Shown piece after piece: positions 14,254 to 63,999 of a stretch of 64,000 nucleotides of DNA. The first letter of the stretch is position 1, and each line of letters begins with the position of its first letter. A program made the position numbers and the translations under genes. Origin of the DNA: a virus; the IMG/VR virus record IMGVR_UViG_3300028569_000022, positions 1 to 64,000 of that record; one strand, written 5' to 3'. The notes beneath the pieces were generated by a model. That model was not told where the DNA came from, did no database searches, and was given only the letters and a program-made list of their open reading frames with translations.

Positions 14254-16296
14254 ATGCCGTCATGTCAATATACCACTTTAATTCCTAGTAGTCAATGCAT
14301 AGGAGACTCTCTTCGTACAATAAATTCTAATTTTACCATATTGAATGATGAACTCTGCAAAATCCCGAGAGCAGTGGGAGATGGAAAAGATACGTTCGTA
14401 ACTCATGAAATGGATTTATTAGGGTGTAACAATATAAAGCTTGAACTTGCTCCCAAACCAACATTATATAAAAAATTCGATTCAATTAGCAGTAATATAA
14501 CATTGAGTTCGTGTGCGTTATCTGACGGATTTAACACTGACATGTACGTTTTTCCGTACATAAGCAGTTTGAAGGACTCTAAGCCCATAGGAACTTTTGA
14601 TGCCATTTCAGAAAACGGTTCTCCTCAATTAACTTTATTTTGGACAGCATCATCAAATAATGCTGAAACCGTATTTGCAACAAATAGTTCAGTGTCTTTC
14701 GGTCAAAGAGGTTCTGTATCGCCTGATGGTCCGGTTCACTGTTTTTGTGAGGTTGGAAATATGCTTTATATAGGAGGAGAATTTAATAATATTGGAACAA
14801 CTACATCAAGAAAATTTGCAACGATTAATTCGAGCGGTGGAGATTTACACAACGAATTAGGAAATGTCGGAGTGAGTGCCGTCTCGTTGTTTGATGGTGT
14901 AAACGGAAACGCAGTTGATTTTGGAGAAATTGGATCGGTGAATTTCATAAAAAATACGAGCATTACGATAGATATTGACGCTAATGATATTCGTGACATA
15001 TTTATAATAGGAGGAAGCTTTAGGTCACCTACTGCTGGAAGAAGTTTAACTGTGTGGGACAATACTTCAAAAAAAACTTATCAGTTTTATGTCAATGGTT
15101 CTCTTCATGATTGTGCTGTAGTTGGATCTGATTTATACGTCGTTGGTAGATTTGATTTTGTTAACTTTGGGGTAGAAGCTGAATCATTCAAATCTGGTAA
15201 GAGATACTATAGTAAATCTATATTAAAAATATCTCTATTAAAGTTGTTAAACAACCAACAACACAATTGTATAGATTCTGCTTTCTGTGAAACCATACAA
15301 AGTTCTCTAACAAACGTTTGTGAGATTAATTGTATTGTGGAAACGTCTAATCAACTTTTTATCGGTGGTGATTTTTTTGCTGAAATAGACGGATTATTAA
15401 ATCAACAAAATTTGATGGCTCTGACTCTTACAGGAGAAATAGTACAATCAATTAAGTTGATTGTAAATAAACCTGTATTTACTTTAGCGTATGACGTGGA
15501 CGTTTCAGTGTTGTATGTTGGTGGAGAATTTACTAAAATTGTACAGCAATCGGTATTTAGTGATTCATTGAATCAGCCCGTAATGGAATCTGAAGGTGCT
15601 TATTTACATGCTGCTGCATTTGATGTACAAATTGAACAAGCTCCTGTTTTAATGGATTGGAAACCCCGATTTAATGGAGCGGTAAGAAAAATAGAAATAC
15701 AGAACGCGTTTATTAACAGTAACATATATGCTATAGGTGATTTTACACAAATAAACGACGAATATTCCGGTCATGCTGCAGCTGTAACGAAGGCATCTGA
15801 TCCACTTGTCGGTAACAATATTGGTGCTAAGGTTGATTGGGCTATTGAAACTCCTACAGCTCCAACACGAAATACTAACGCGCTTCTTAAAGGACTCAAT
15901 GGAGTGTATATTGGTGGAACCTTTACCAAAATCGGAGGAACAACGAGGTTTTATTTCTCCAAAGTAGCAGGAGCTGGAGAAACGGCTGGAAACGTAAAGG
16001 CTGATGTGGTTTGGGATTTTGGAGGAAAGGTGCTCACAGCAAATGAACCATACTCATTAATATTTAATGAAATAGACACTGTTCGATCTAAAACACTCTG
16101 TAAACGAAGTGATACCGTCAACGTTACCACTTTTGCTCCATTAAGAGAGCCGTTTCAGAATCAACGTGCTGGACACTTGTGTAGATTCTTTATAAGAAGG
16201 CCGTGTTATAGCGGTGCTAGTGGAAAGTTAGATCTGACTGATGACACTTACGCGAAGTCGGTAAAGATTGTAGGTTGGTCTCTATCATACGTGTAG
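14254..16296 (+). CDS. Virion accessory protein with beta-propeller repeats
   Basis: Repeated LY(I/V)GG(E/D/T)F blades; N-terminal CIGDSLRTINSNF adaptor motif. Confidence 0.6.
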   Translation: MPSCQYTTLIPSSQCIGDSLRTINSNFTILNDELCKIPRAVGDGKDTFVTHEMDLLGCNNIKLELAPKPTLYKKFDSISSNITLSSCALSDGFNTDMYVFPYISSLKDSKPIGTFDAISENGSPQLTLFWTASSNNAETVFATNSSVSFGQRGSVSPDGPVHCFCEVGNMLYIGGEFNNIGTTTSRKFATINSSGGDLHNELGNVGVSAVSLFDGVNGNAVDFGEIGSVNFIKNTSITIDIDANDIRDIFIIGGSFRSPTAGRSLTVWDNTSKKTYQFYVNGSLHDCAVVGSDLYVVGRFDFVNFGVEAESFKSGKRYYSKSILKISLLKLLNNQQHNCIDSAFCETIQSSLTNVCEINCIVETSNQLFIGGDFFAEIDGLLNQQNLMALTLTGEIVQSIKLIVNKPVFTLAYDVDVSVLYVGGEFTKIVQQSVFSDSLNQPVMESEGAYLHAAAFDVQIEQAPVLMDWKPRFNGAVRKIEIQNAFINSNIYAIGDFTQINDEYSGHAAAVTKASDPLVGNNIGAKVDWAIETPTAPTRNTNALLKGLNGVYIGGTFTKIGGTTRFYFSKVAGAGETAGNVKADVVWDFGGKVLTANEPYSLIFNEIDTVRSKTLCKRSDTVNVTTFAPLREPFQNQRAGHLCRFFIRRPCYSGASGKLDLTDDTYAKSVKIVGWSLSYV

Positions 16297-16356
16297 AACT
16301 GGTTATATAAATTTTAAACTGGTATTGTTTATTGAGTTAAAAAGATAAATAAGAAT

Positions 16357-18570
16357 ATGGCTCTACAAGGTATACCAATTTCCCAAGAACAGTGCATAGG
16401 AGACTCCTTAGACACAATCAATAATTCATTTGTTGCTTTGGACTCAAGAACACTTGAATTGTCTAGCAACTTATCGTTAAGCGCTGTATCACTTCACGAA
16501 AAAATAACTAGTTTATCTGCTGGGGATGATGCGTTTACCACCAATTTAAATCTCACCGCTTCGAATCTTTCGTCAAGCTTGACTCTTACTGCATTAAGCC
16601 TTTCCACAAGTTTAGCTCTATCCGCTTTAAATTTACAGACAGCAATATTGGAAATGTCTGGAACTTATACTGTTGCTACTCAGACCACATTCGAATTTAA
16701 TCCGTCTCACAATAACACAACAATTGTATTAACAGGAACGAATAATGTTAAAATAAGCAAGGCTGCTTCTGCAACGTTTAAGCCTAATCACAGAACAACA
16801 ATATTGCAATTAGGCACAGGAAGAGGATATTTTGAAGATCCAGCGTTTAAGGTTAGTTCATTCCAGACTTTAAGCACAGGCGGACAATATACTACTTGTG
16901 AAATCCGAAATATAAACGTAAATGAGGTTAATATGCCTTGGGTCGTAGTAGGACAATTATCTGCGTCTCTTCCTCCTCTTCCTGAACTTCCGGAAATATT
17001 TCAGTTTTCGTTGAAAGGATCTTATAACCAAAACTCAGGAGAGGGGATTGAAATTGCTGGTGTAGAAGATGACATATTTTATTTCAATTCGAGGCCGATG
17101 GATCACTCAAGCACAGAAGTTATGACATTGGTTGTCAATGGAAGGAAACGATTGACTGTAGCGTTTACTTCGGACAGACTAAGAACGTATTTTGGATACA
17201 AACCTAAAGGCACTGCTACTATTTCTACAGCATTGTTTTCGAGGGGAAATGTCTCATTAACTATTCTTAATGCGTCAGAAATAGTTCCTAAAACGCCGGT
17301 AGAAACTCAACCAGGGGTTGGTGAGCTATATGAATATTCTCTTACTGGAGATCGGGAGGACGCGTTAGCAGGAAAAGATATTTCTTTGTGTACGGTTGGA
17401 AACGGAGACGTGCTCTATTACAATTCAACAGTACCAGCTTTATCTAGCGATAGGTTAATTGCGGTCAATGTATTTGTTAATAACGTATGGAGATCAACTA
17501 TTATAGCAAAATCGAATAGACTAGGTTCGGCATTTGGATATAAATTAGACCAAACCGATGCTCCATTGACGTCGATGGTGCACGGAACATTTATTATAGA
17601 TAGTCCATATTCAGGTTCATACTCAAACGTAAATTTAACAGTTGCTAATTGGACTCCACCAACAACGACACCATTCGCTCTTTTTTCAAACAACTTAACT
17701 GGGCCAACCGAAGAAACTGACACTTTACTAAAAAGTGTTAGCTCCTATGGATTTCCAGATACAATATATTTTGAGAACAGGACGGGTAGCACAGCAGTTA
17801 CTTTATTGTCTACTATGTCTGTTGCAGTAAATGGGAATGATAGATTATCTGTCCAGTTTTCGCCGGATCGTGCAGGGTTGGGTTTTCAATATAAAATGCA
17901 GGGTTATAACGATGTATTAACAGGAAAATTTGGAGCCGGTAAAGTTCATCTAACATCTGGAACACATCCGTTAGCGCTTGCTGTTCCATACAATCCGTTC
18001 ACAAACAAATTAAGTGTTGGTGTCAACGATACGTCTAATGGGTTGATTTTTAGTGGTCCTGCAGGTGTTTTTACTGGGTATGTAGCTGGCTTTTGTTTTT
18101 ATAATAATAATCCTGCTCCTTCCACCGGCGGAGTGCCATCTACAGCAACACTATTTATGTCTGGTGATCCAATAAATTCTATAGGAAGTATACTGTTTAA
18201 TGATGGATTGTTGGGTAAAGATTTTGGAGTTAGCTTTACTGGCAATCCAGATGCTCCACAAATGTTCGGAAAGTTTGCTGCTGGAAATGTTGAGCTCTCT
18301 CTTATTCTTACTGGAAATCAAACAGATACTTCTGATAACGATATTGGTATGATGAATTACACTAATTCAGCAAGATTATTTTATAAAAAAAGACCTAACA
18401 CTACAGCACCGGTAGGTGTAACTTCACAATTATATGTAAATTCAAAGTATGTGGCTACAATAACCTACTACGAAGATTATGTTGGACAACAATTTGGGTT
18501 TAGTCCATATAACACATCCGTTCCACTCTACAACAAAACGTTTACAAGCGGTAAAATATTTCTACCGTAA
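16357..18570 (+). CDS. Tail fibre / accessory virion protein with about 5 tandem ~95-aa repeats
   Basis: N-terminal CIGDSLDTINNSF, an LSA-rich coil, and repeated FYF...V.VNG..R..V.F..DR.G..FGY...G.F..G.V.L units. Confidence 0.6.
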   Translation: MALQGIPISQEQCIGDSLDTINNSFVALDSRTLELSSNLSLSAVSLHEKITSLSAGDDAFTTNLNLTASNLSSSLTLTALSLSTSLALSALNLQTAILEMSGTYTVATQTTFEFNPSHNNTTIVLTGTNNVKISKAASATFKPNHRTTILQLGTGRGYFEDPAFKVSSFQTLSTGGQYTTCEIRNINVNEVNMPWVVVGQLSASLPPLPELPEIFQFSLKGSYNQNSGEGIEIAGVEDDIFYFNSRPMDHSSTEVMTLVVNGRKRLTVAFTSDRLRTYFGYKPKGTATISTALFSRGNVSLTILNASEIVPKTPVETQPGVGELYEYSLTGDREDALAGKDISLCTVGNGDVLYYNSTVPALSSDRLIAVNVFVNNVWRSTIIAKSNRLGSAFGYKLDQTDAPLTSMVHGTFIIDSPYSGSYSNVNLTVANWTPPTTTPFALFSNNLTGPTEETDTLLKSVSSYGFPDTIYFENRTGSTAVTLLSTMSVAVNGNDRLSVQFSPDRAGLGFQYKMQGYNDVLTGKFGAGKVHLTSGTHPLALAVPYNPFTNKLSVGVNDTSNGLIFSGPAGVFTGYVAGFCFYNNNPAPSTGGVPSTATLFMSGDPINSIGSILFNDGLLGKDFGVSFTGNPDAPQMFGKFAAGNVELSLILTGNQTDTSDNDIGMMNYTNSARLFYKKRPNTTAPVGVTSQLYVNSKYVATITYYEDYVGQQFGFSPYNTSVPLYNKTFTSGKIFLP

Positions 18571-21019: not shown

Positions 21020-24000
21020 ATGGAAACTCTCAAATTTTCTGTATCGCCATTATTAAAAAAAGAAGGAGCGTATAAAGGAAATGTGTATGCTACTCAGTTT
21101 GAGTTTAAGCAACAAAATTTCTTTGAATATACTGAAACTGCGTGGGAATTTGGTGATGGAAATACTGCGTACAACAGCACTACAGCAGCACACATATATA
21201 ATTATCCAGGCATATATCAAGTAAGTTTATCAGCATGGTCAAATAACGGTTATTTACAGACAGCAAAAGAACAAATTGATGTTGATTATATTATAAGAGA
21301 TTCGATGGTTGCAACTAAAATTCCGGCTGATAAAAGTGTAGTTGGGGCTAAGACAAAAGAATGTTTCACTATAGCATTAACTTCAACAAGAATACAAGAG
21401 CCAATAGTAGTAGCTTTGCACTCGTTAGGTTCTGCCTCTATTCCGTACTCTGCTGCTCCTCAGAAGTGGAATTTTTTAACACAGAGGTGGAGATTTGTTG
21501 ATGCAACAACAAATGAAGTCATTTCAGGAAATCTCATTGAAGTAAACACAGCTCCAATATACAGCAATTCAAATCAAATTGCAGTATCTGGAGAATTTTC
21601 ATTTTATTATATCGATGATTCTCCTACACAATTTGATAGTGGAGTGGGATGTCCTGCTATGTTGATTGTCACGCTGAGTGCTCAAAATTTTTTATATCCA
21701 CCAGAAACATTAAGATACCCGTATTACAGTTACAGCAACACAGAATCTGTGCAAGTAGCAATTCCTAGATTTATAATGGATTTAGTTCCTACTGAATTAA
21801 AAATTACAGAAAATTATCTGAGTAATGTGTATCCTATAAAATGGACGACTGTTCCTGTCCCCGTAATGGTGACATGCGTGTTTAATCCTTTAACGTTGCC
21901 TTCATTTGCATCGTCGACTGACGTGCTATCCTCAAGTGATATGTTTAGTTATCCTAAAACTAATATTCACGGAAACGTTAATCCAGTAACGCTGAGTTTA
22001 TCTGGAGTAGATCCTAGCCTTTATGTAGTAGATGAAGCGCCTAATATATTCTTTAATGCAACAGACGATGACGGAGGACTTATAAGAGGGTATATATTCA
22101 CCACAATAACTCCCCTAAGTCCAATCTCAGCAACATGTGTTGTAGCTTCTACTACTGCTGTGAATTTGTTGCCGGATACTGCAAATCCTAAACGTTTTCA
22201 GTTCCCTGTTGGATATAACATTCCAACAGAAGTATACGTCTCACATCCGTTTGAGTGTAACTTGAATAAAATAAACATTGTTCCATATAGTTCTAATTGT
22301 CAAACAGTAGATTATTTTATGGCAAAAAAGGCATTGCGGACCGGGTTTATACAAACGATATCAATTCCCCAATTGTCGTCAAATACTGTCGATAATCTAC
22401 AATTATCAGGAACAGCAGGGGTTTATGGTATGTCTTACAATCCAAATACGGAAACACTGTATGCTGCAGATTCCGATCAAAATACCATATTGAAAATTGA
22501 TAAAAATGGAAAAATTATAACATCAGTTCAGGTATCAGCAACTACTTTAGATTCATATAATACCCCGTCATGTGTTTCAGTAGCTGAAAATGGGGATGTG
22601 TGGGTTTCTTTATATGATAGTCATCAATTATTAAAATATACGGCTGATTTATCAGCTGTAGCTTGTGTTGCAATGCCTTTTAATTCAACTCAACTACTAA
22701 CTGCGGTTGATGAGTTTGATAGTCCGTTGATCGCTCCACCAATCGTAGAAACCACAAATAACGGAGAGGTGTGGGCATGTTATGCAAATCCTCTATCTAG
22801 CTTATTAGTTAAGTATAACTCATCTGGAAATTTATTGCTTAGTTGCACTGAATTGGAGTCAACAAGTGAACCTTCTTGCTTGGCCATAGATAAAGATTAT
22901 AATGTTTGGGTTGCATGTAAAAACACAAACCAAGTTCAACAATATGATTCGAACGGCAATAAAAAACAATCTTTTAGCTTCTTGAGACCTAGCTTTATAT
23001 CGATAGATAATGACAATGATGTGTGGGTTGCACATGGATATAATCTATTGAGTTACCTCAACACAGCAACTCTTCAGGTTAATACTTGGAGAGTAACGTT
23101 CTTTCCAAAGCTTGAAATAACACTAGCGTTTACAAGGCCATACGTATATGATGAGTATCCCGAAGAGGACTTGCGGAATATTTTATCTAATGATGAAATA
23201 TGGGGAGGATTAACAGTTGACGTGTTTAATCGAGTTTGGGTTATAGATTCTGTCAACAATAATATAGGAATGTTTAATAAGTCAACCATAACCAATTTTA
23301 AAGTAATGAAAGCTTATCCAACAGCTTCGACTAACTATATTGTTGAAACTGGGTTAGATTACGTAACTCACGTTAACGTTTCATCTGAATTGCCTCAAGT
23401 TCCTGTTCGTTCCATACAAGCATCTGGAGACTGGTCGGGTAATCGATGGTTGCAAAAATATGCAAATAAATACATAACTACATCTATAAAGGGTGCTTCA
23501 ACACCGTTTGAGGTACTCCCGTTAGTTAACAACGAACAAATATTAACAATGGATATATATGTTAGGGACAGTAAACGAGCTAGCGTAAATTTTACTGGAG
23601 ATCGAGTGGGCTCTATGTTTGGATATAGAGTATTTGATGTTAATATCGGCGATGCTGAAGCATATGATGTGTTTCAAATTGGCAGAGTTGATTTAAACAT
23701 AAAGGAGCACACGTCTCAATTAGATCAATTTGAATATGTAATAACAGGAAAGTCGAAAAGCACAGATGAGAACGTTTCATTGAGTACCGTAACTTACGAC
23801 GAGTTTTTATTTACTAATAGAAGAAAACAACAATTTAAGCTTACTAAGACAAATGGAAATTTCGATTTTGCTGAATACTTTAACAGACTGGCTTTACCTC
23901 AAACTCTTATTGAAAGTCCGTTGCTGATTAGCGAGTTCATAACAGGACTGTTTGGAAATGGTGAAGGAATGACTGAAGACGCAAGTCGGACAATATACGA

Positions 24001-24577
24001 AAAGACAGCAAATTTTGTTGCGAACCATTCGGATATAGAAACAGCTGAAATCGATAAATTAATATCTCTAGCGGAAGCTCTATCAATAGATTCTAAAACA
24101 TTTGGAAGCAACTTTCCAACAGAAGTAATAAAGTATTTGAATGTTTTCTCCACACCAATTCACAATTTAAGAGGAGTTCCTGTATATCAAACTATAGTAG
24201 CTGAAAATTTAGGAGCATATTTAAATATAACTGATACAATAAGTGCTGGAGAATATATTCTAGCAAAGGATAAAGCATATGATGAATACAAGTTGATTTT
24301 TGTAAATGCATTAACTGATGGTACTCTAATATATCCTCTATCGTCACTTAACGCAGACTCTCTTAGAAAGTATCCAAGCGAACAGTATTACACACAATAT
24401 CACTTTTTTAAGTATAACACAGAAAACATTATAGGCTTTCAAAATAACACGATTGAGTGGGATGCTAATTTAACTGCCATTTCTCGTACGTTATCAGGAT
24501 ATGAAGATTGGTATAAAGAAGATGGTGTTGCTGAAATATATTTCAATAATACATTAACGAGAGGGCTCTTCTCATAA
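21020..24577 (+). CDS. Large baseplate-associated protein with PKD domain and beta-propeller
   Basis: PKD motif WEFGDG...HIYNYPGIYQVSL, NHL-like repeats (IDKDYNVWV, VDVFNRVWV); follows gp6. Confidence 0.65.
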   Translation: METLKFSVSPLLKKEGAYKGNVYATQFEFKQQNFFEYTETAWEFGDGNTAYNSTTAAHIYNYPGIYQVSLSAWSNNGYLQTAKEQIDVDYIIRDSMVATKIPADKSVVGAKTKECFTIALTSTRIQEPIVVALHSLGSASIPYSAAPQKWNFLTQRWRFVDATTNEVISGNLIEVNTAPIYSNSNQIAVSGEFSFYYIDDSPTQFDSGVGCPAMLIVTLSAQNFLYPPETLRYPYYSYSNTESVQVAIPRFIMDLVPTELKITENYLSNVYPIKWTTVPVPVMVTCVFNPLTLPSFASSTDVLSSSDMFSYPKTNIHGNVNPVTLSLSGVDPSLYVVDEAPNIFFNATDDDGGLIRGYIFTTITPLSPISATCVVASTTAVNLLPDTANPKRFQFPVGYNIPTEVYVSHPFECNLNKINIVPYSSNCQTVDYFMAKKALRTGFIQTISIPQLSSNTVDNLQLSGTAGVYGMSYNPNTETLYAADSDQNTILKIDKNGKIITSVQVSATTLDSYNTPSCVSVAENGDVWVSLYDSHQLLKYTADLSAVACVAMPFNSTQLLTAVDEFDSPLIAPPIVETTNNGEVWACYANPLSSLLVKYNSSGNLLLSCTELESTSEPSCLAIDKDYNVWVACKNTNQVQQYDSNGNKKQSFSFLRPSFISIDNDNDVWVAHGYNLLSYLNTATLQVNTWRVTFFPKLEITLAFTRPYVYDEYPEEDLRNILSNDEIWGGLTVDVFNRVWVIDSVNNNIGMFNKSTITNFKVMKAYPTASTNYIVETGLDYVTHVNVSSELPQVPVRSIQASGDWSGNRWLQKYANKYITTSIKGASTPFEVLPLVNNEQILTMDIYVRDSKRASVNFTGDRVGSMFGYRVFDVNIGDAEAYDVFQIGRVDLNIKEHTSQLDQFEYVITGKSKSTDENVSLSTVTYDEFLFTNRRKQQFKLTKTNGNFDFAEYFNRLALPQTLIESPLLISEFITGLFGNGEGMTEDASRTIYEKTANFVANHSDIETAEIDKLISLAEALSIDSKTFGSNFPTEVIKYLNVFSTPIHNLRGVPVYQTIVAENLGAYLNITDTISAGEYILAKDKAYDEYKLIFVNALTDGTLIYPLSSLNADSLRKYPSEQYYTQYHFFKYNTENIIGFQNNTIEWDANLTAISRTLSGYEDWYKEDGVAEIYFNNTLTRGLFS

Positions 24578-24652: not shown

Positions 24653-27600
24653 ATGACTGTGATTAATCCATTTGAAACAACACTCAATTCTCGTGCACTT
24701 ACTAAAAAGAAACCATCTTTTAATGGAGATAGTGACGCACCACTTCCATTTATTGAGTGGAGAAGGCAGACTCTTGTAGCAACCGAACAAGAAGCAAGTA
24801 ATTTATATAACCAATATCTATCCGAGTGGTTTCAAGCATCTAAAAATAACTCAGTAACTATAGATCAAAAGTTTTTGTTGAGACAGAAGTATTTGTATCT
24901 CTTAGCTCAACTTAAATTATTTTTTACTAACGAAGAGAAGCAAAGTTGGTATTCGAAAATTAATCTTGCTGACGAAAAAGAATTATTGTTATCAATCCCT
25001 TTTTTTGCAAAAAAACTTAAATCGATTGCTCTGTATTATCAAAATTTACGAAAAAAACTCAAAAACGCTAAAATTAAATACAATTTAGCTGGATCATCTG
25101 GAGGAATAGAGAAGGAAATACAGCAATATTTATTAGAATTGTTTGCTTCTATGGAGGAAGATGTTGATCCGGCTCTCAGAAGAGCTCTGCCTTCATATGA
25201 TGCAGTTAAAGATTCATTAAAAGTCGAAATAGAAGAATTATATGACGGAACTACTTATTTTGATCGCTCAACTACAATGCCAGTATCTGCGTACGTTGAC
25301 TTGTTTCATGAATCTACTGCGAAATTATTTCAAACAAAAGGACTAACACTATCATCTGACGAGTGGGTATTTAACACATTTTCGGTTCCTGTTACCTCAA
25401 ATTTAACTACATATGTTAATCAAATCACTGGATTGATTTTCGAACAAACTGATCCAGCTCTTTATTACGGATTTGTAAGTAAATATTTAACAGGAAACAG
25501 AATCGTAACCAACTTTGCAGTTCCTTCAGCTGAAGTGGTTTTCAAAGACATTTCAATAACTAAAGGAGATAATTATTTTTATTATCCGTATGGCTCCGTA
25601 AACGAGGTCACTGACACTTCGATGATGGTTCCTGTAGCTTTAAGCTCGCTTAATTTAGTTGGAACCGCTGGAGATGCATTATCCACTGCTGATATTATTC
25701 ACGTAAGATACGGAGATGTAATTAAATCAGCATGGTTACACGAGAGAATATATGATGCTACAGACTCTCATGTTGCAGCAAAAATTAACGGAAAGACAAG
25801 CACTAAGTTTATGTTTCCATATCCTGGAGTTGGTATGTCAGCAGAAGATATTCCGTGGACGGGAAAAAGTCTTTCTTCTACTTCCGAGTTTAAATACCTA
25901 ACAAGAGAATACAAAAATGCTGTAACCTCAGCATACTGGCTAGATCCTCTTTCAGGAGATTCTTGTATTCCAATTCCAATTAATAATTCAACCTTAACAG
26001 ATTGTGGAGCTTTTCCGAGTGTGTATTCAGACAAAGCGGATACAATATATTTGAGAGAAAGTAATGGGGCGGACCAAGCAGCACCATTCACAAGCTTGAG
26101 TTCCTGTTGGCTATATCGCTTCGAACGGACATCTATTCCGATTCACGTATCATTAACTGATCCTATTTTGTGGCCATATCAATACGTAAGCGCTACAGAA
26201 GACTTATTTCCACCACATCTAAAGACGTTTAATTATGATAAAAGATGTGCTACGACAGTATTAAACGATATAAACAAGTCTAATTTAGTTGCTGGTTCAG
26301 CAATCGATCTTGGTGAGAAGGTATATAAGTTGGGTCGATACACTGACAACAAAACCACAGCAATGGAATGTGCGTGGCTTTCTGGTTCGTCAAACGAATC
26401 AGAAACTCATAAGTGGATCTCACAGGATGGGTTTACTGGATTATTTGAGCCTGGTCAAGCTACTAGATTTTTATGGACCGGTGTAAATAAAACTCCTCTC
26501 AGTGGTGTATTCAAGACGTTAAGTCACTCAGAAGAGTGTCCGTTTACTACTAGTAAAGACCCTGAGCATTTGGGCGGAAACCAATGTACATGTAAACAAG
26601 TATATTATACGCCAAGAGGGCATCCTGGCGAAATATTCAGTGAACACAACTCACAAGCAGACTTTATCGTAAAAGAAATAATCGTAGAAGATTCTGATAA
26701 TACTCGATTTTCATCCGGCATTGAACCGTTTACTGGTAGTACATGGGTAGACGAAAACGGATTAACCATAACTGAAACTAATAAATTTGCGTGGTATAAA
26801 ACAGACAGCGTAATTGGAGGATATGGAGATGGAAAGTGGGTTGGAAATCAAGGTAGAACACCACTTGTTTTAGAGACAGGATCTTCTTATTTTTACGTGA
26901 GAGCGGCCTCTCGGACATCAGCTCTTTCTGCTGAAGATCCGTGTTTGGTTGTAAATTACGATCATTCGTTACCTAAGAAAAATACAAAGTGGATACAAGC
27001 CAAATTAGATATCGAAGGAAATTGGATATCAACAGATGTTGAATCAACCATTTCTATTGATGCTGGAGATTTTGTTATTTGGGAACATCCAGAAGTCACT
27101 ACAAACTATTTATTGTCTACCGTTGAGGTGGAAAATGTGTCTGAAAATACTGGTAACATATGGGCTTCTCTTGACGTCCTTGCATATAATACTCCTCTTA
27201 GTACCGCAATAATTACTTGGCCAGTGGAGGTATATGGGAGTGAACCAGAAGAGACGAAATCCCTTCAATATCCAAAATATTCATTTGTGGATGTCCTTTC
27301 AGTAACATATTGGAAATTTAAAAATACTACAACAAATAAAACTTATACGTTTAGTGCTACTGATATTATGACGTTTGCTCCGCCCACTACAGGAGTATAT
27401 GACATTTCAGTAAGAGCAATGATTGCTCTTAGTGGCGGAGAGAGTGGGTTAGTGGTCAATATTCCAGGTGATGGTGGCACAACAATACCTCCGCTAACTG
27501 TAATTCCTCAGTTTGAGTCTACTAAGGAATTAGTTCCAGTAACGCAACCGGTTCCTGGTGCATTGTTAGAAATACCACTAAGCGGATGGAACTATGAAAC

Positions 27601-36248: not shown

Positions 36249-36373
36249 GATCATAATTATCAATTAAACTTATCAAAAAGCGTAAATGAAGCGTTCGTTT
36301 AATTTTGAGATGCAATTTTTGAAAATTTTCTTGAGTATATAGTTTTTTATTTGAGTTTGATTAAATAACCTTA

Positions 36374-39208: not shown

Positions 39209-39224
39209 CATAATATTAGATAAG

Positions 39225-39261
39225 TAATTACAGAGCATAGACCATTTATGCTCTGTAATTA
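39225..39261 (+). promoter_or_regulatory. Perfect 15-bp hairpin sequestering the HNH start codon, overlapped by a late-promoter-like TAAGTA
   Basis: TAATTACAGAGCATA (39225-39239), loop GACCATT, TATGCTCTGTAATTA (39247-39261, whose last base is the A of the ATG). TAAGTA is at 39221-39226. Confidence 0.8.
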
Positions 39262-43964: not shown

Positions 43965-43979
43965 AGCAACTAACGTAAT

Positions 43980-47404: not shown

Positions 47405-47425
47405 GCATTTACATAATTACTTTAA

Positions 47426-50671: not shown

Positions 50672-50721
50672 ACTCTCTTATATGGTAGAAAAAAACCGAA
50701 AATTAGATAAATAAAATTAAC

Positions 50722-51708: not shown

Positions 51709-51734
51709 TTTAGAATAACGTTATTTATAAGTTT

Positions 51735-51767
51735 AAAAAGCCTCGGAGTTTCCGAGGCTTTTTTTTT
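51735..51767 (+). terminator. Intrinsic terminator
   Basis: AAAAAGCCTCGGA-GTT-TCCGAGGCTTTTT plus a T run. Confidence 0.9.
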
Positions 51768-51787
51768 GGTTTTTAATAAATAAAGAT

Positions 51788-52279
51788 ATGGAAAAAAAAT
51801 CCGAACTAAAGCTTAGAGATTATCTGACTTTAGGTAAACCTACAATTTCTCCGGACAGTTTGGATCCGAATGTCTTTTATTTTCCTGAAACAGGAGAGCC
51901 TCCAATATTACATGCGCGAATTAATGCTCAGATTATAAACGATCTGGAGTTTTTTTGCGGGGAGCAACAACAGAGAATCGAGAAATACGTATTGGTTGGT
52001 GATGCATTAATTCCTGGAAACAAAGACCGAACAAAACCCTTAAAAGTATTAATAATTCTCAATAAAACAATAATGGATTTGGATATCGAAGGAATGCTCT
52101 CTGAAGTGATTTTAAAAACACTTAACAATATAAGTGGAAGGTTAGCTTCTGGTACGTTACGACCAATTATATACATACCAACAGTAAGAAATATCAAAGA
52201 TCATCCTGAATATAAAGCAGTTTATGATATTGCTATACACAAATGGATTAAGTTACCTTCAGGGTTAAAACATGCTTAA
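51788..52279 (+). CDS. Degenerate nucleotidyltransferase-fold-like protein
   Basis: LDPNVF...P.L...I..QI...I..YVLVG, then P.IYI...AVYDI..HKWIK.P, resembles phage Pol-beta-type NTases, but the GS/DxD motif is missing. Confidence 0.4.
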   Translation: MEKKSELKLRDYLTLGKPTISPDSLDPNVFYFPETGEPPILHARINAQIINDLEFFCGEQQQRIEKYVLVGDALIPGNKDRTKPLKVLIILNKTIMDLDIEGMLSEVILKTLNNISGRLASGTLRPIIYIPTVRNIKDHPEYKAVYDIAIHKWIKLPSGLKHA

Positions 52280-53679: not shown

Positions 53680-54546
53680 ATGGCATTTAAAGCTAAGACA
53701 TGTAATGATACAATACAGCTCTTTTGCAAAGGAGGCAATCATGGGTTTTTTTCTAATTGTTCTTTTGTACTAAAGTCAATATTAAACTTTGTTGACACAA
53801 ACAAAAAATTGCCAAGTTATTTAGACGGATTGGCTCTATTTCCAGTATACAAACATAACCCCCAGAACCTTAACGAAGACTTAATGAAGGCATGTTTCGA
53901 ACAAAAGTGTATATCAAACATTCAAATTGATAGTGTTTCGAAAGGCGGCTGTTATTTTTATCAGAGAGCTCATCAAGCTCAATATAAAAAACTCAACTTA
54001 AGTGAACTTAGCTTATATATTGACGCATACCTTACTCCTAGCGCTACTATAAAAGAGATTATCAACACAATTGAAAAAACCTATTTAATAGACTACGAAA
54101 ACACATGCACAGTATATTATAGAGGAACCGACAAGAGAACTGAAGCTGGACTGGCTAGCTACGAAGAGTTTTTTGATAAAGCTGACGAGATCTCACAAAA
54201 AAATCCAAATATACGATTTTTTATACAAACTGATGAGTTGGAGTTTGCATTAGCATTTAAGCAAAGGTTTAATAACAGTTTTTCCATCAACGAACTTGCT
54301 ATGATATCTCGTGAGAACAACCTGGGTCCTCATTTTTCCTTATTGCAATCAGAAAGAACCACGCATGCTTATTGGTTTTTGGCTGCTGTTATTATTATGT
54401 CAAAAACAAAACACATAATAACAGCTACTGGAAATGCTGCTCTCTGGGTAGTTCTTTACAGAGGAAACTACAAAAATGTTCATCAGTATTTACGCCGAAT
54501 TAATCGCTTTACTCAAGAGACAGTACAAAATTTTGGCTGGATTTAA
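53680..54546 (+). CDS. NodZ/FUT-like GT-B fucosyltransferase-family protein
   Basis: GFFSN start, VYYRGTDK (H/YxRxxD), FFIQTDE and IMSKTKHII...GN motifs. Confidence 0.65.
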   Translation: MAFKAKTCNDTIQLFCKGGNHGFFSNCSFVLKSILNFVDTNKKLPSYLDGLALFPVYKHNPQNLNEDLMKACFEQKCISNIQIDSVSKGGCYFYQRAHQAQYKKLNLSELSLYIDAYLTPSATIKEIINTIEKTYLIDYENTCTVYYRGTDKRTEAGLASYEEFFDKADEISQKNPNIRFFIQTDELEFALAFKQRFNNSFSINELAMISRENNLGPHFSLLQSERTTHAYWFLAAVIIMSKTKHIITATGNAALWVVLYRGNYKNVHQYLRRINRFTQETVQNFGWI

Positions 54547-56003: not shown

Positions 56004-56765
56004 TTAAGAATCTTTTGACATCAACAATCTTGCCAGTGAACCGTCATCACAACCGTGATGAATTACTGCATTTGAATCAATCGGAAAGTCAAATCTCAAT
56101 CCATCTGGAAATTCGTTATGGTCCTCTCCTTTAATACAGTTTGGTGAAAACTCTTTATAATTTTGTGTCCTAAAGCAATGTTGAAACAAATTAGAATGGT
56201 GAGTGTTTGGCACTAGCTCGTTTTGGCACAATACGTCAAATGCAGTTGCTAATCTGTCGACGTATTTCCAGATTGTACAACACACATCAATGTCAGGCGG
56301 ATATACAGCAGCTCCAACTAAATGTTTAGTTAACGGAACAATAATCCCATCGTCCGTAAGAGTCGTGGTGTCTTGAGTCCACCCTAAGCAGTATTTGCCG
56401 CATTGTTTATATTCTTGTTCTAAAATATTTATCCAGTTACGTGTTAACGGAGTCATGTCAAGCTCCATCCAAAGCCAAGGCAATTTTGTTTTTCTTTGGT
56501 ATTTTAAGTGTTTTATTGTTTCTTGCCAATAAAAGTTTGGACCTTGAGGCCACCCTGTTTTACCGTCTTCTGGAAAAGCATATATATCAGATGTTTTAAA
56601 TTTGGTTTTAATTTTATTTAAAAGAGCTACCGCATGGCTAGCATCTGTCGGCCTGGAAACTACGAGAAGTTCGTGAGTAGAATATGGTCCAAAATGATTA
56701 AGACAAGCTGAAAAGTCTTCAATTAATTTTGCGTCAGAAACGGAAACGGGTATAACTATTAACAT
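56004..56765 (-). CDS. Probable GT-A fold glycosyltransferase-like protein
   Basis: N-terminal LIVIPV strand, GWPQGPN, WLWMELD (DxD-like), GAAVYP and VIHHG. Confidence 0.5.
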   Translation of the reverse strand: MLIVIPVSVSDAKLIEDFSACLNHFGPYSTHELLVVSRPTDASHAVALLNKIKTKFKTSDIYAFPEDGKTGWPQGPNFYWQETIKHLKYQRKTKLPWLWMELDMTPLTRNWINILEQEYKQCGKYCLGWTQDTTTLTDDGIIVPLTKHLVGAAVYPPDIDVCCTIWKYVDRLATAFDVLCQNELVPNTHHSNLFQHCFRTQNYKEFSPNCIKGEDHNEFPDGLRFDFPIDSNAVIHHGCDDGSLARLLMSKDS

Positions 56766-57085: not shown

Positions 57086-59308
57086 TTAGAACGTTCCGCC
57101 ATCCAAAATTAACATGAGATTATCAATGTAATTTTTGGTTGCAACGTGAGAAGCTAATGTAGGTTCAGCTGCTTCGACTGTGCCAGAAAACTTACCGTTA
57201 CCGATTACGTCTAACGCTTCGGTAGGAGCTTCTGTGTTAACACCGACTACGCCAGCGCCGACAAACAATGTTGCTGTTTCATCATTGTTTACTGAAATCT
57301 CAACGCCGTTAGCAGCAGTAATAGTTCCAGAAACATCTAAGTTTCCAGAAATACTTCCACCAGTAAGGTTTAAGAAGTTAGTGTCTACATATGTATTGAG
57401 ATTACTGATTGTTGCTTCAAGAGCATCAACTTCGTTATTAATAGTTGTATTGAGAGTGCTTACTTCGTCAGCTAAGTCAGAAGCAATTGCTGCTTCAGCA
57501 GCTGTTGCACGGCTAACTTCTGAATCAAGTTGACCTTGGAGGTCAGATGAAACTGAAGATATTGTCGTTGAACTGTTATTAGCGAGTGTTGTTATTGCAC
57601 CGTTAAGATCGCTGTCAGCCTGTTGAAACGCACTAACGATTTCAGTTAAGGAATCGAGAGCTGCTCCATCAACGTTGCTTAGAACGTTATCAATTTGTGA
57701 TTGTATGTTGCTTGCAACACCAGAAATCGTTGAATTGAGTGTTGAAACTTCGCTGTCGATCTTTGAATCGAGAGTAGAAGAAACGGACACCATTAACGAA
57801 TTGAGGTCTGAATCAGCAGTAGCACGAGCTGAAGCTTCATCAGCAATGTCTGAAACCAGACCAGCTGAGATAGAAGCAACAGTTGATGTTAAATCGCTGA
57901 TAGCAGTGCCACGATTGGTAACTTCGTCAGCTAGGTCAGAAGCAATTGCTGCTTCAGCAGCCATTGCGCGGCCTTCTTCAGCAGATACAGCAGCAGTAAG
58001 AGTGCTTACTTCAGAAGCAATTGATGCTTCAAGTGTAGCAACTTCAGAGTCAATTTTTGAATCAAGAACGCCTTCAGCTGTCGTAGCACGGCTAACTTCG
58101 TCTGACAAGTCAGATGCGAGACTAGCTTCAGCAGCGATTGCACGGCCACTTTCTGCAGATACGGCAGTATTGAGAGTGCTTACTTCAGAAGCAATTGATG
58201 CTTCAATTGTTGCAACTTCTGAGTCAATTTTTGAATCAAGACTAGCAGAAACTGAAGCTAATGATGTTGAAGCAGAGTTTGCGAGACTAGTAATAGCACC
58301 ATTGATATCGCTGTCAGCAGATTGAAAAGCTGAAACGATTTCAGTTAAGGAATCAAGCGCAGCAGCGTCAACATTACTAAGAACATTATCAATTTGTGAT
58401 TGTATGTTGCTAGAAACAGATGCGACTGTTGTGTTGAGAGTGCTTACTTCAGAAGCAATTGATGCTTCAAGTGTAGCAACTTCTGAGTCAATCTTAGAAT
58501 CGAGAGTGCTTACTTCAGAAGCAATTGATGCTTCAAGAGTGCTTACTTCAGAAGCAATCGATGCTTCAAGTGTTGCAACTTCTGAGTCAATTTTTGAGTC
58601 AAGAGTGCTTACTTCAGAAGCAATTGATGCTTCAAGTGTAGCAACTTCTGAGTCAATCTTAGAATCGAGAGTGCTTACTTCAGAATCAATTTTTGAATCA
58701 AGCGTAGAAGAGACAGACTCAACTGTAGTAGTTAAGGCTGAATCGGCAGCTATACGAGCAGCTTCTTCAGTTGAAAGATCGCTTTTGATCTCAGCTGAAA
58801 GGCTAACTAATGCTGCGGACGAATCTGAGGCTAAACCGTCTAAATCCGACTGCAAAGACGATGAGATTGAATCCATCGTGGAATTAACACTATTAATCGT
58901 ATTAACGAGATTCGTAGCAAAGTTTTCGTCATTGCCTAAAGCAGAAGCTAATTCATTAAGAGTATTAAGCGCATCTGGAGCCATATCGATAACTGCAGCA
59001 ATTTGCGCATCGATTTTAGCATCAAGAGTGCTTGATACAGATTGAATAGTTGTGTTTAGCGTAGCAACTTCTTGAGTAACTCTTACATCAATAGATGTTA
59101 TGTCCGTTTGGAGATCGGCTGAGATCGAGCTGACGCTAGCGTCAGTTGCAAAATGACCGTCGCCTCCAATAGGTATTACGCCATTTTCTGAACCATAGTA
59201 TAATACTGAGTCTACTTCGTTGAATGCCAATTCACCACCAGAGAGTGCTGCAGGAGCACCAGCTTCACCAGTAGTACGGCGTTTAATGAGGATTGTGTTG
59301 TATGCCAT
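57086..59308 (-). CDS. Long coiled-coil fibre protein with Mtd-N-like head and C-terminal LDGGTF
   Basis: MAYNTILIKRR...GELAFNE, APDALNTLNELA.AL, 11-residue SEVSTLDSKID/SEVATLEASIA repeats and ATKNYID. Confidence 0.75.
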   Translation of the reverse strand: MAYNTILIKRRTTGEAGAPAALSGGELAFNEVDSVLYYGSENGVIPIGGDGHFATDASVSSISADLQTDITSIDVRVTQEVATLNTTIQSVSSTLDAKIDAQIAAVIDMAPDALNTLNELASALGNDENFATNLVNTINSVNSTMDSISSSLQSDLDGLASDSSAALVSLSAEIKSDLSTEEAARIAADSALTTTVESVSSTLDSKIDSEVSTLDSKIDSEVATLEASIASEVSTLDSKIDSEVATLEASIASEVSTLEASIASEVSTLDSKIDSEVATLEASIASEVSTLNTTVASVSSNIQSQIDNVLSNVDAAALDSLTEIVSAFQSADSDINGAITSLANSASTSLASVSASLDSKIDSEVATIEASIASEVSTLNTAVSAESGRAIAAEASLASDLSDEVSRATTAEGVLDSKIDSEVATLEASIASEVSTLTAAVSAEEGRAMAAEAAIASDLADEVTNRGTAISDLTSTVASISAGLVSDIADEASARATADSDLNSLMVSVSSTLDSKIDSEVSTLNSTISGVASNIQSQIDNVLSNVDGAALDSLTEIVSAFQQADSDLNGAITTLANNSSTTISSVSSDLQGQLDSEVSRATAAEAAIASDLADEVSTLNTTINNEVDALEATISNLNTYVDTNFLNLTGGSISGNLDVSGTITAANGVEISVNNDETATLFVGAGVVGVNTEAPTEALDVIGNGKFSGTVEAAEPTLASHVATKNYIDNLMLILDGGTF
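57450..58700 (-). repeat. 33-nt (11-aa) tandem repeats and a larger internal duplication in the fibre gene
   Basis: Recurring gagtgcttacttcagaagcaattgatgcttcaa. The NIQSQIDNVLSNVD.AALDSLTEIVSAFQ block occurs twice. Confidence 0.9.
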
Positions 59309-59675: not shown

Positions 59676-59710
59676 AGATTGGTTGAGGTCTTCTTTTTAA
59701 CTAGATTAAA

Positions 59711-59989: not shown

Positions 59990-60054
59990 GCTTTGATCAT
60001 ACATAGTTTCTGTTGGAGTTCAACGAAAATAATTGAAAACAATTAAATAAGAAT

Positions 60055-60255: not shown

Positions 60256-60259
60256 TCCT

Positions 60260-61225: not shown

Positions 61226-61326
61226 ACATTTATACTTATCAAAAAAGCTTAATTTACCCTGTATTAAAGCGGGTTATTAGTTATGCAGTATTATAGAGAT
61301 AGCCTGTAAATTAGGGGAACCTCTTG

Positions 61327-63720
61327 TTAATTTTCTCTTCTTTCCTCTGGCTTATAATATACTATTCTGTTGTGTTCAATAGGACTAGCAAGAAGTACTG
61401 CTGGTCGCAAATTGCCTTTTCTGGTCTCTTGAAACATATGACTCATCCAAGTTTGTTCATAAGGATGTCCCCACTTTGTGTCCAAAAACATCTTTCTGTT
61501 TCCTTCTTTACCTACAATCATAGGCCAATTGGCATAATAAATTTCCCCATCAATATAAGCTAGCTCATCAACAACATCAATTTTATTGAAAATTGTTCGT
61601 GGGCAATTTAAATCGAGTCCTTGTACTGGTAATTTATCGTAGTGTGGCCACAATTCTGTTCTAACATGCTGAGGAACATTATACCATGAAACTTGCAAAT
61701 GATTGTCCATATAAACCTCAGTGAAGGTCAGCTTTAAAAAGTCAAATTCATCCTTAAGCATTATCTTATGGATTTTGTCGAACAAATTAGGTACATATTT
61801 CCTAAATCCATTTCTGCAAAACCCTGTGTTTTCAGGGGAAAACATGCCCATGTCATCCTCAAGAAAAATATAGTAATCACTGTCGGTTTGATCGAAATGT
61901 TCTGCTGCTCTGAGTCTGCCTCTATTAATCCCTAAATTCTCTCCAGTAACAATATGTTCAAAACCATACTCTTTACATATCTGCTCGTTTCCTTTTATTG
62001 CCTCTTCGTTATTAGAGTTATCAATTAAAAATTTCTTTGTTTTATCTAAAAACCCAGGATGCTGTTTATATTTTTCAAGTGTATATCTTACTTGTTGAGG
62101 AAAATTAAACGTGAGCATATACAGCGACGTTTTTAATTTAGATGTGTCTAAGCTCTTACGTATAAGAGCAACTCTGTCGTTCGGTATAGACTCTAATGCA
62201 ACCGCATTATTAATTAACGCTTGGACAAACTTGACAACTAAGCCGTTACCATCTAAAGCATATCGTCTATATTTCTCTGGCTCAACATATGACATAAGAG
62301 TGAAAACGCTCTCTTCAGTACCCATAAACCCTCCTCTAAGGGTCTTATCTAGCATTGAGTAATACAACCCATTAGCTTGGTTTATTATTTCTTTTCTTCC
62401 GCCAAACAATCCGCCTCGACATACATATTCGACTTTTTTCCCTGCATAACGATTCATTGCATTAAAATCAAATCCATGAATTTCTGTATTTGCTTCATAC
62501 GGATAGCTTAAAAACAAAAATGTATCGAGATGTGAAATTATGTTATCAAGAGCTCTGTGTTCTGAAAAATATGATTTGCCTACAGTATTCGTTATACCAG
62601 CGTCTATCCAAATAAAATATTCAGTATTAAACGGATTCCAAATCGTGACATCGTTGAGTAAAAACATCTTTGATTGAACAATCGGATTGTACCATTCTAA
62701 AGATGCTTGAGGACTATTCGATAGCCATCCTCCTTCTCCTGTTTGATTGTACCATAACGGATTAGTTCTAATCTCTTGAGTCTTATTCCAAAACGGAGCA
62801 TACATATTCCGTATATCTTCTAGCTCATAAATTTTAACGGAAGTATTTTCTCTCGAACGTTTTTCCCAAACTAAGTGTTCATATTCTTTAGGAATATAAA
62901 TAAACATGTTGGCAGGTGTGTCTAGTAAATTTTTAAAATGTTCTATGTAATGAGAAAAATCTCTTCCTTGACGATTTATATTCCACAGACCTGTAACGAT
63001 CGTTAGATTTTTATTTTGTATGTTGTTTATTGAAGTTGGCTCAGGCAACACACAACTTTCTCTAACTTTATTTAAATCCCAAAACGCGAGAACTTTTCTA
63101 TTTCCGTTTTCGAACCCATCAACTCTTACATCTTCTTCTAAATAGGCATCAGGTTCAGGAAAATTGAATGGGGAAGCAATTAAATTGACTGGATAAAACC
63201 TGCCGTATTCAACACCTTCATTTTCTCTGTGAACCTCTCCAGATTTGCAAGACGTCCACGTGTGATCATCTATCTTTTTAGCCCATGTAGTGCTTAGTAG
63301 GTATTTACAATTTGAATTTAATATATTGTGAATAACCTGCTTGCTGTTTTCTAACGGAAGATGACCTAACACATCCCGTACTATTAATAAATCCGCATCA
63401 GGTATTTTATCTGTAATTAAATCGAACTCAACAAAATTAGTGGTTTCGTTTCCGTAATTTTGTGTATTAGCTTCCACTGCCTTTTTAACTATATCTCCGC
63501 CAACATAACTTTCAAATGAAGAAACTAGTTCTTTCATCCAATTAAAATCTCCACACGGAATATCAACTACAGTTTTAATATTTTTTGCCGTAATAAGATC
63601 TTTTATTTTTTTTCTTAAAATTTTAGTTTCATCTAATGTGCTCCCAGGACCTGATCTACTCTCATTACTCCCGAAACCGTAATTTTCGTAGATGTTTGTA
63701 AAAACGTTTTTGTAATCCAT
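61327..63720 (-). CDS. Fusion: class I SAM methyltransferase + HtrL/WlaTC-like glycosyltransferase + GT2-like domain
   Basis: SGPGS...VDIPCGDFNW...GGDIV...RDVLGHL; TIVTGLWNI...SKMF...YFIWIDAG...GGLFGG...GTEES; LIDNS...NLGINRGR...FLEDD. Confidence 0.75.
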   Translation of the reverse strand: MDYKNVFTNIYENYGFGSNESRSGPGSTLDETKILRKKIKDLITAKNIKTVVDIPCGDFNWMKELVSSFESYVGGDIVKKAVEANTQNYGNETTNFVEFDLITDKIPDADLLIVRDVLGHLPLENSKQVIHNILNSNCKYLLSTTWAKKIDDHTWTSCKSGEVHRENEGVEYGRFYPVNLIASPFNFPEPDAYLEEDVRVDGFENGNRKVLAFWDLNKVRESCVLPEPTSINNIQNKNLTIVTGLWNINRQGRDFSHYIEHFKNLLDTPANMFIYIPKEYEHLVWEKRSRENTSVKIYELEDIRNMYAPFWNKTQEIRTNPLWYNQTGEGGWLSNSPQASLEWYNPIVQSKMFLLNDVTIWNPFNTEYFIWIDAGITNTVGKSYFSEHRALDNIISHLDTFLFLSYPYEANTEIHGFDFNAMNRYAGKKVEYVCRGGLFGGRKEIINQANGLYYSMLDKTLRGGFMGTEESVFTLMSYVEPEKYRRYALDGNGLVVKFVQALINNAVALESIPNDRVALIRKSLDTSKLKTSLYMLTFNFPQQVRYTLEKYKQHPGFLDKTKKFLIDNSNNEEAIKGNEQICKEYGFEHIVTGENLGINRGRLRAAEHFDQTDSDYYIFLEDDMGMFSPENTGFCRNGFRKYVPNLFDKIHKIMLKDEFDFLKLTFTEVYMDNHLQVSWYNVPQHVRTELWPHYDKLPVQGLDLNCPRTIFNKIDVVDELAYIDGEIYYANWPMIVGKEGNRKMFLDTKWGHPYEQTWMSHMFQETRKGNLRPAVLLASPIEHNRIVYYKPEERREN

Positions 63721-63726
63721 ATTGTA

Positions 63727-63999
63727 TTATTTTTTAATCTTGCATACCCATGCTGCCGGTGTAAATTGTTCTTGCATAAATGAATCTAAACAGTATTTGG
63801 CAACTGATTCTTGAATGTCTGAGTCTTGTATTTCATGCCAATTCCAAAATTTCATGTAAACAGTTTTTTTAAAATATTCAGGAGTGGAAGCATAATCGTG
63901 TGCCATAATTATGTCTCCTTGTTTTATATATCTAGACAATAAGTTAAATTCACCAATTTTCCAACCGCCGTCACACAACACTAGCGTTATTCCATCTTG
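63727..63999 (-). CDS. Probable SAM-dependent methyltransferase, C-terminal part (truncated by the window)
   Basis: LVLCDGG.K..EF.......GDIIMAHDY; the frame is open to the window edge. Confidence 0.55.
   Translation of the reverse strand, partial: QDGITLVLCDGGWKIGEFNLLSRYIKQGDIIMAHDYASTPEYFKKTVYMKFWNWHEIQDSDIQESVAKYCLDSFMQEQFTPAAWVCKIKK

Follow-up and report, generated by a model that had tools for sequence, protein, structure and literature searches.

The outer tail proteins encoded by a virus contig, IMG/VR record IMGVR_UViG_3300028569_000022, repeat the tripeptide Leu-Ser-[Ala/Gly/Ser] (LS[AGS]), and the same contig carries glycosyltransferase (GT), methyltransferase and sulfate-activation genes. 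The question that this locus raises is whether both belong to a single system, as was claimed in a first-pass annotation that took the motif for the Ser acceptor of a glycan coat on the virion. The window analysed is the first 64 kb (64,000 nucleotides) of this 91,440-bp contig (here G000), whose completeness was estimated by CheckV at around 40%, and the main term of comparison was G001, a relative of 217,182 bp with terminal repeats (100% complete) that is syntenic with G000 at 30-80% amino-acid identity. The answer is that the single system merges two features that the comparative data separate.

LS[AGS] is enriched in the outer tail proteins

Motif occurrences were counted in 45 translated open reading frames (ORFs), each compared with 1000 shuffles of its own sequence. 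The counts that the first-pass annotation had given for two baseplate proteins, 17 and 10, were reproduced exactly, and among the further ORFs that it had described as motif-rich, those starting at 16357, 31374 and 47426 were enriched in LS[AGS], whereas that at 57086 was enriched only for the V/I variant. The motif-bearing proteins of the window are listed below, with the number of sites expected from the shuffles in brackets.

24653-29362, plus strand: 1569-aa peripheral baseplate protein with the highest LS[AGS] content, 17 sites (shuffle mean 2.7, z 8.9)
21020-24577, plus strand: 1185-aa baseplate protein with PKD and NHL/SGL beta-propeller domains, 10 sites (1.7 expected, z 6.1)
16357-18570, plus strand: 737-aa tail protein, 7 sites (1.9 expected), 5 of which fall within aa 35-90, an N-terminal, fibre-like stretch rich in Leu and Ser
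30383-31003, plus strand: 206-aa ORF without counterpart in G001, 4 sites (0.6 expected)
31374-33440, minus strand: 688-aa tail fibre with a Collar domain, 7 sites (1.5 expected), 4 of which belong to a repeated unit, h-F-K-[TS]-L-S-[AS]
42666-43964, plus strand: 432-aa PKD-like tail protein, 3 sites (0.5 expected), as against 6 (0.9 expected) in the orthologue of G001
47426-50671, plus strand: 1081-aa tail protein, 7 sites (1.9 expected)
57086-59308, minus strand: 740-aa Ser/Ala-rich coiled-coil fibre, enriched only as [LVI]S[AGS], 20 sites (11.1 expected)

Past the window, an excess was also detected in a fibre-like ORF at 77655-78809 (5 sites against 0.7 expected) and in the C-terminal extension of a gp15-like protein (4 against 0.2). 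The first of these, encoded on the minus strand, contains between aa 212 and 245 a 10-residue fibre-like tandem repeat, each unit of which is centred on L-S-[AS] (SLSAYNTRSN, ILSAGFATTDR, LSSHHTTSN and ILSANQTT).

As had been noticed in the first reading of the sequence, the motif is sparse in the tape measure protein, where it falls below chance (2 sites against 3.6 expected), and in the enzymes, which overall are at or below expectation, with no site in CysD and 1 against 1.2 expected in CysNC. Composition-corrected tripeptide counts and shuffling had been proposed there as a control, and this control gave z values per protein of 4 to 9 and recovered the motif: when the full contig was scanned for each of the 8000 tripeptides, LSS (43 against 18.3) and LSA (34 against 13.1) came straight after the low-complexity TPT/PTP and the Gly-rich triplets that head the list. 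A position-by-position scan of two genomes with around 40% amino-acid identity gave at position 0 an excess of L (2.0-2.2-fold) and V (1.6-fold), and in both genomes S was found far above T at position 1 and A above S and G at position 2, with S, T or P preferred at position -1.

At the motif sites Leu is encoded by any of its six codons and Ser by either of its codon families and, because of this diversity, the signal has to be placed at the level of the peptide and a DNA-level origin was ruled out. Paralogy as the cause of the shared motif was ruled out as well, since an all-against-all BLAST comparison detected none among the motif-rich proteins, in agreement with the earlier claim that they are not paralogues, and the small shared domains that do exist were found in other pairs. 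The regularity is solid: LS[AGS] is a real and unusual feature of the outer tail proteins of this genome.

The motif sites are old and conserved one by one

For the 1569-aa protein encoded at 24653, neither tblastn against cultured phages nor a single-sequence scan of IMG/VR gave matches, while an alignment-based scan did find homologues. The family comprises 43 homologues with identities of 26-93%, and all 38 that are full-length and aligned are enriched in the motif (z 3.8-10.9). In this alignment, the motif occupies 17 columns in 8 or more of the 38 sequences and 7 columns in 21 or more, the Leu and Ser of the latter being almost invariant and Thr rare. Counted per sequence, 11.8 sites also occur in a homologue of less than 50% identity, as opposed to 2.1 that are unshared, with 2.7 expected by composition; the family of the protein encoded at 21020 gave 4.9 shared and 1.6 unshared sites, with 1.8 expected, and in this protein itself 8 of the 10 sites are shared with homologues below 50% identity. 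As the unshared sites are at chance level, the excess is made of old fixed sites, without any contribution from continual gain, and purifying selection maintains LS[AGS] site by site. Site turnover, which would have pointed to a glycan shield, was not seen, the unshared sites being at chance level in both families.

The substitutions found at motif positions have a definite pattern, in such a way that 69% of those affecting Leu lead to hydrophobic residues and 71% of those affecting Ser lead to polar or charged ones, with N, D, T, E and K frequent among them. From these replacements, the Leu seems to be buried and the Ser after it exposed, ahead of a small residue. In an AlphaFold2 (AF2) model of aa 200-1200 of the 1569-aa protein, with a predicted local distance difference test (pLDDT) value of 75, motif sites occupy coil and the ends of strands, and several of the conserved ones coincide with the starts of short helical turns. 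At 3 of the 14 modelled sites a strand is followed by a 3-10 helix that begins at the motif Leu or Ser (EE-HHH), and two further sites sit 2-3 residues ahead of a helix; a fold search with this 1001-aa model gave no informative match. Diverged tandem repeats of around 100-130 aa are also present in the protein (aa 296-417, 454-576 and 491-624; hhalign probability 78-91%), with PV-LS-x-I, AD-x-I-[FY] and AWL as common elements. These repeats explain a few of the motif sites, and most LS[AGS] sites lie in non-repetitive sequence.

The motif in genomes with and without the enzyme genes

Relatives were traced through the family of the 1569-aa protein, and G001, G002, G003, G004 and G010 fall in the same clade as G000, G003 being a complete genome and G010 33% complete. 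This is a clade of aquatic T4-like phages with genomes of around 220 kb. Three aquatic phages outside the clade (G011, G012 and G013), which are positive for GT60-like genes and have only 6-11 genes in common with G000, were also analysed, as was T4 (70-169 kb). The ratio between observed and expected numbers of LS[AGS] (O/E) was 2.23 in G000, and values of 2.0, 2.27, 1.79, 2.55 and 1.81 were obtained for its relatives G001, G002, G003, G004 and G010; in the unrelated G011, G012 and G013 it was 1.23, 1.45 and 1.52. A trait of T4-like tail proteins in general was ruled out by the O/E of 1.0 found in T4. In the tail module of each clade member, 6-8 proteins are enriched when taken one by one (2 in the 33%-complete G010), and those of G004 include large ORFs without BLAST match in G000.

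The complete G001 has no cysD, cysNC or ORF 53680, and the entire island of GT and methyltransferase genes that occupies 61327-69061 in G000 is also missing, the genes that flank it in G000 adjoining each other in G001. Its orthologues of the motif-bearing proteins are still enriched, with 15, 10 and 6 sites against 3.1, 2.1 and 0.9 expected. The same holds for the complete G003, which carries neither the GT60 island nor the 56004 family and has nonetheless the O/E given above. LS[AGS] is thus kept in relatives without the enzyme genes and is near baseline in unrelated phages that do have GT60-like ones, and therefore the motif is untied to these genes.

Other GT genes are present in all clade members sampled over enough length, and one of them, GT2-like, is orthologous in G001-G004. 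In G001 (L083) it belongs to a cluster at 43380-52042 that contains two GT2-like genes, a Glyco_trans_1_2-like gene and a methyltransferase, in the neighbourhood of a UvsW-like helicase and an Mre11-like phosphoesterase. As the clade carries these other genes, modification of the motif by another, phage-encoded enzyme is possible.

Sulfate activation, glycosyltransferase and methyltransferase genes

The enzyme genes that the first-pass annotation had joined to the motif, together with those found just past the window (genome coordinates), are the following.

8900-9778, plus strand: cysD-like sulfate adenylyltransferase subunit 2, accessory, without counterpart in G001
9841-11730, plus strand: cysN/cysC fusion (GTPase subunit and adenosine 5'-phosphosulfate (APS) kinase), accessory, without counterpart in G001
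53680-54546, plus strand: 288-aa ORF with a language-model Atlas lead to NodZ/FUT8-like (GT23) clusters, without counterpart in G001
56004-56765, minus strand: 253-aa GT-A-fold glycosyltransferase-like protein adjoining a fibre gene, present in G000, G001 and G010 and not in the complete G003
61327-63720, minus strand: 797-aa fusion of an S-adenosylmethionine (SAM) methyltransferase and an HtrL_YibB-like glycosyltransferase, at the window-side end of the accessory island
63727-64000, on to 64356 past the window, minus strand: RMNT_CmcI-type (rhamnosyl O-) methyltransferase
beyond 63727-64356, in the island: three unannotated ORFs
66568-67830 and 67823-69061, just past the window: GT60-like PF11397 paralogues that close the island

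The island is thus made of seven co-oriented genes. Its two genes within the window had been read as a methyltransferase-GT-GT fusion and a methyltransferase, and the matches obtained were to a methyltransferase plus an HtrL_YibB-like part in the case of 61327 and to an RMNT_CmcI-type O-methyltransferase in that of 63727. The set of enzymes is genuine and exceeds what was described at first, with two GT60-like genes added just past the window. Their products match PF11397 with 183.7 and 221.3 bits (cut-off 21; E 1e-54 and 1e-65), and the sequence QLDSHH, which we take to be the DxH metal-binding motif of GT27/GT60 GT-A enzymes, is invariant in six phage homologues. A search for solved structures of the GT60-like protein found none. 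GT60 enzymes are polypeptide alpha-N-acetylglucosamine (GlcNAc) transferases that start mucin-type O-glycans in protists (PMC8724618).

The full synthesis of 3'-phosphoadenosine 5'-phosphosulfate (PAPS) that had been read from the sequence was confirmed by the domain matches of CysD (PAPS_reduct fold, E 1e-39) and of the CysN/CysC fusion (GTPase, E 3e-46; APS kinase, E 2e-63). No sulfotransferase had been seen in the window and, when the search was widened as the first reading had suggested, none (PF13469 or PF00685) was found in the 91-kb contig, around 40% of the genome; both families do match in the relatives G010 and G003, in the latter at 102450-103052. The fucosyltransferase-like reading of 53680 stood in part. 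It agrees with the Atlas feature lead (score 0.95-0.98), in whose clusters NodZ/FUT8_N_cat is assigned to 11-19% of the members, but no match to Pfam, PHROG or NCBIfam was detected, and membership in a GT23 or NodZ/FUT8 profile was not found. Together, cysDNC (8900-11730) and 53680, both accessory and missing from G001, recall the set of genes that decorates Nod factors.

The GT-A-like assignment of 56004 was upheld by its AF2 model (pLDDT 95.5; predicted template modelling score, pTM, 0.92), for which Foldseek gave a probability of 1.00 to B3GalT5, XXYLT1, LgtC, glycogenin and LH3 with template modelling (TM) scores of around 0.5. Residues E101, D103 and H237, candidates for the DxD-type acidic motif and the C-terminal His that serve metal and nucleotide-sugar binding in GT8 enzymes, do not vary among 35 homologues, and a Pfam scan of the family gave no match. 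It is an uncharacterised viral family of more than 110 clusters, in synteny with the coiled-coil fibre gene (57086) in G000, G001 and G010.

Thr/Pro tracts as candidate acceptors

Long Thr/Pro tracts were found in three proteins of G000 that share domains with the baseplate proteins, two of them encoded in the window and the third at 76193-77650.

29349-30347, plus strand: 332-aa protein with an 89-aa mucin-like Thr/Pro tract (aa 207-295) and a domain in common with 24653
35151-36263, minus strand: 370-aa protein with Thr/Pro tracts at aa 19-54 and 279-342 and a domain of around 70 aa in common with 16357, not in G001

The Thr/Pro-tract proteins of G000 and the island are both missing from G001. 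Tracts added up to 269, 956, 447, 204 and 0 aa in the GT60-positive G000, G010, G011, G012 and G013, and to 30, 0, 80, 0 and 0 aa in the GT60-negative G001, G003, G002, G004 and T4. In G010 (L094), which carries the GT60/methyltransferase island with the same neighbours as in G000, a PF13469 sulfotransferase (5558-6157, E 2e-17) lies between two ORFs, 1637-5299 and 6374-9235, each with hundreds of residues of Thr/Pro tract. PF11397 was also searched on ten contigs picked by their Thr/Pro-tract content, with 0/5 positives in each group, a result made uninformative by their completeness of only around 20-30%. From this distribution, the Thr/Pro tracts appear as likelier glycan acceptors than LS[AGS] for the products of the GT, methyltransferase and PAPS genes.

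Other features of the contig

Judging from its genes, G000 is a distant T4-like myovirus, with gp25, a gp44-type clamp loader, a dCTP-deaminase-like protein, ribonucleotide reductase, a T4 neck protein, the gp20 portal, a gp15-like protein and PhoH. No close cultured phage was found for it, the best portal identity being at most 31%. Its nrdA gene is interrupted by an intein (38141-41133); an HNH ORF separates the halves, and both flanks match Pfam Intein_splicing. Over the whole contig, many structural genes are preceded by TAAATA, 9-16 nt upstream of the start codon, and those starting at 5527, 14254, 16357, 18669, 24653, 31374, 50722, 51788, 71499 and 73434 are among them.

A two-part explanation and its alternatives

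The motif statistics and the conservation of the sites, together with the genes that each genome has or lacks, are what the analysis shows; from them we infer a structural role for the motif and every biochemical step of a separate decoration module, a joint explanation that in our opinion has about an even chance of being right. LS[AGS] would be a lineage-specific conserved element at fixed sites in peripheral baseplate, fibre and neck proteins, probably a Ser-capped tight turn or the start of a short 3-10 helix right after a buried Leu, reused by the domain types found in the tail proteins of this clade. It would be independent of the GT, methyltransferase and PAPS genes, which occupy accessory islands. 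The GT60-centred island, with its two GT60-like DxH enzymes, the HtrL-like GT-methyltransferase and the RMNT_CmcI-like O-methyltransferase, would form together with 53680 and cysDNC a mucin-type decoration module, whose acceptors would be the long Thr/Pro tracts of three to four tail proteins and whose action would begin with a GlcNAc-O-Thr linkage and go on with extension, methylation and perhaps sulfation.

Several points weigh against this explanation. The motif appears in contexts as varied as strand ends, coil, 3-10 turns and 10-residue fibre repeats, and no single structural role is obvious; the enrichment of large G004 proteins that are not homologous to those of G000 hints at a factor acting in trans, not at inherited folds; a conserved, probably exposed Ser that is seldom replaced by Thr also fits a modification site; and there are other GT genes across the clade, the orthologous GT2-like gene of G001-G004 included. 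Regarding the module, the association between GT60 and Thr/Pro tracts comes from 10 contigs, several of them incomplete, G013 is GT60-positive yet has no Thr/Pro tract, no GT60 was found in the 45% of the genome covered for the tract-rich G007 (L065), and no TAAATA late-promoter motif stands before the island genes themselves. A role of the island in the glycosylation of DNA or of the host envelope, which would compete with the decoration of tail proteins, is somewhat unlikely in our estimate.

The single system proposed at first, in which LS[AGS] would be the Ser O-glycosylation sequon for the GT, methyltransferase and PAPS genes carried by G000 on exposed virion proteins, agrees with a genuine motif that is centred on Ser, probably exposed and found mostly in peripheral tail proteins, and with the presence of protein-type GTs (PF11397), methyltransferases and PAPS synthesis. 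The presence/absence data largely refute it, as the complete G001 and G003 keep the motif at the same sites and with the same density without these genes, and the unrelated GT60-bearing G011-G013 stay near baseline, without enrichment. The lack of a sulfotransferase in the 91-kb contig also argues against it, and known GT60 acceptors are Thr/Ser-rich mucin tracts and the hydroxyproline of Skp1, not Leu-Ser-small (PMC8724618; Pfam PF11397 description), so that we consider it very improbable. Even less credit, practically none, can be given to the enrichment being a compositional or low-complexity artefact or a pattern chosen post hoc, which was tested and rejected: some sites do lie in Leu/Ser-rich repeats (aa 35-90 of 16357 and aa 212-245 of 77655) and in internal repeats, and the excess, though mild (1.2-1.5), extends to unrelated aquatic phages, but the shuffles of each protein, the unbiased recovery of LSS and LSA, the replication in five other genomes and in every full-length homologue, and the location of most sites outside repeats speak against it. 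A trans-acting factor common to the clade, such as a conserved phage enzyme (GT2-like, for instance), a host enzyme or an assembly chaperone, could instead modify or bind the Ser, taken as exposed and adjoining a buried Leu. It would account for at least six non-homologous enriched proteins per genome, including those of G004 without G000 homologue, for the strong conservation of Ser with Thr rare, for the heterogeneous contexts and for the baseline value of T4, and candidates exist in the orthologous GT2-like gene and in the GT/methyltransferase cluster of G001. We regard it as unlikely, given that there is no turnover of sites, that the G001 cluster adjoins helicase and Mre11-like replication genes, suggesting DNA or early functions, and that Ser gives way to N, D or T, as a capping or turn residue does. 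A combination in which LS[AGS] would be a true Ser modification or recognition sequon, maintained at fixed, exposed positions in at least six unrelated tail proteins and read by a clade-conserved or host enzyme, and the GT60/methyltransferase/PAPS island a second, accessory mucin-type layer on the Thr/Pro tracts, is likewise unlikely. As for the enzymes, it is doubtful, though not far-fetched, that the island, 53680 and cysDNC leave the virion proteins alone and modify instead phage DNA bases or the polysaccharide of the host envelope during infection. The roles usually given to phage GTs are the glucosylation of DNA or a change of host serotype (PMC12619734, PMC13326640), HtrL/YibB and NodZ-like proteins use lipopolysaccharide-core or oligosaccharide acceptors according to their family descriptions, no late-promoter motif precedes the individual island genes, and the GT60-positive G011 has a thymidylate-synthase homologue. 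Against such targets, the characterised PF11397/GT60 members are polypeptide GlcNAc-transferases, the island has co-oriented virion genes around it and a gene with a late-type promoter upstream, it is found together with Thr/Pro tracts, and no thymidylate synthase or hydroxymethylase homologue was found in G000, G010, G012 and G013, all of them incomplete.

Comparison with known systems

If LS[AGS] is indeed a structural element, it would resemble the helix N-cap with a hydrophobic staple and the ST-turns, in which a hydrophobic residue is followed by Ser (swapped for N, D or T) and then by a small residue, and several motif sites begin short helical turns in the model; the difference is that only part of the sites precede a helix. 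We know of no case in which capping or ST-turn motifs are enriched several-fold over unrelated proteins of one virus clade. Its presence at fixed sites over unrelated tail proteins would mark it as a structural device that very large baseplates can reuse, or else as the trace left by a trans-acting factor. The O-glycosylation sequon of Bacteroidota, D-[ST]-[AILVMT], acts in the periplasm on exported proteins, and it is similar in being a three-residue, Ser-centred pattern on many unrelated proteins; the residues are different, and in the present case no transferase co-varies with the motif.

The accessory genes are comparable to the rhizobial NodPQ/NodH/NodZ system by their CysD plus CysNC-like PAPS synthesis, the NodZ/FUT8-like lead of 53680 and the sulfotransferases of the relatives. 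The Nod system differs in its acceptor, a lipo-chitooligosaccharide, whereas here 53680 has only an Atlas lead and the contig yielded no sulfotransferase. Virion glycosylation by phage GTs is already known from the O-glycosylation of mycobacteriophage virions (Freeman et al. 2023, as cited in PMC12619734). There, phage-encoded GTs are proposed, like here, to decorate structural proteins of the virion, with glycans detected by mass spectrometry on the C-termini of capsid and tail-tube subunits; in G000, the candidate acceptors would be internal Thr/Pro tracts of tail proteins, and the putative initiators GT60-like.

If the GT60-like enzymes do glycosylate these tracts, this would be a mucin-type protein O-glycosylation in a bacteriophage, carried out by an enzyme family characterised so far in protists and possibly combined with methylation and sulfation, and the resulting coat could alter adsorption, the stickiness to polysaccharides, grazing or immune recognition. 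The phage system would differ from the protist GT60 enzymes (Dictyostelium, T. cruzi; Skp1 Gnt1; PF11397) in its cytoplasmic assembly, in enzymes that are predicted, and in bearing no relation to LS[AGS]; the likeness lies in a strong profile match, two paralogues, an invariant DxH and Thr/Pro tracts encoded in the same genome.

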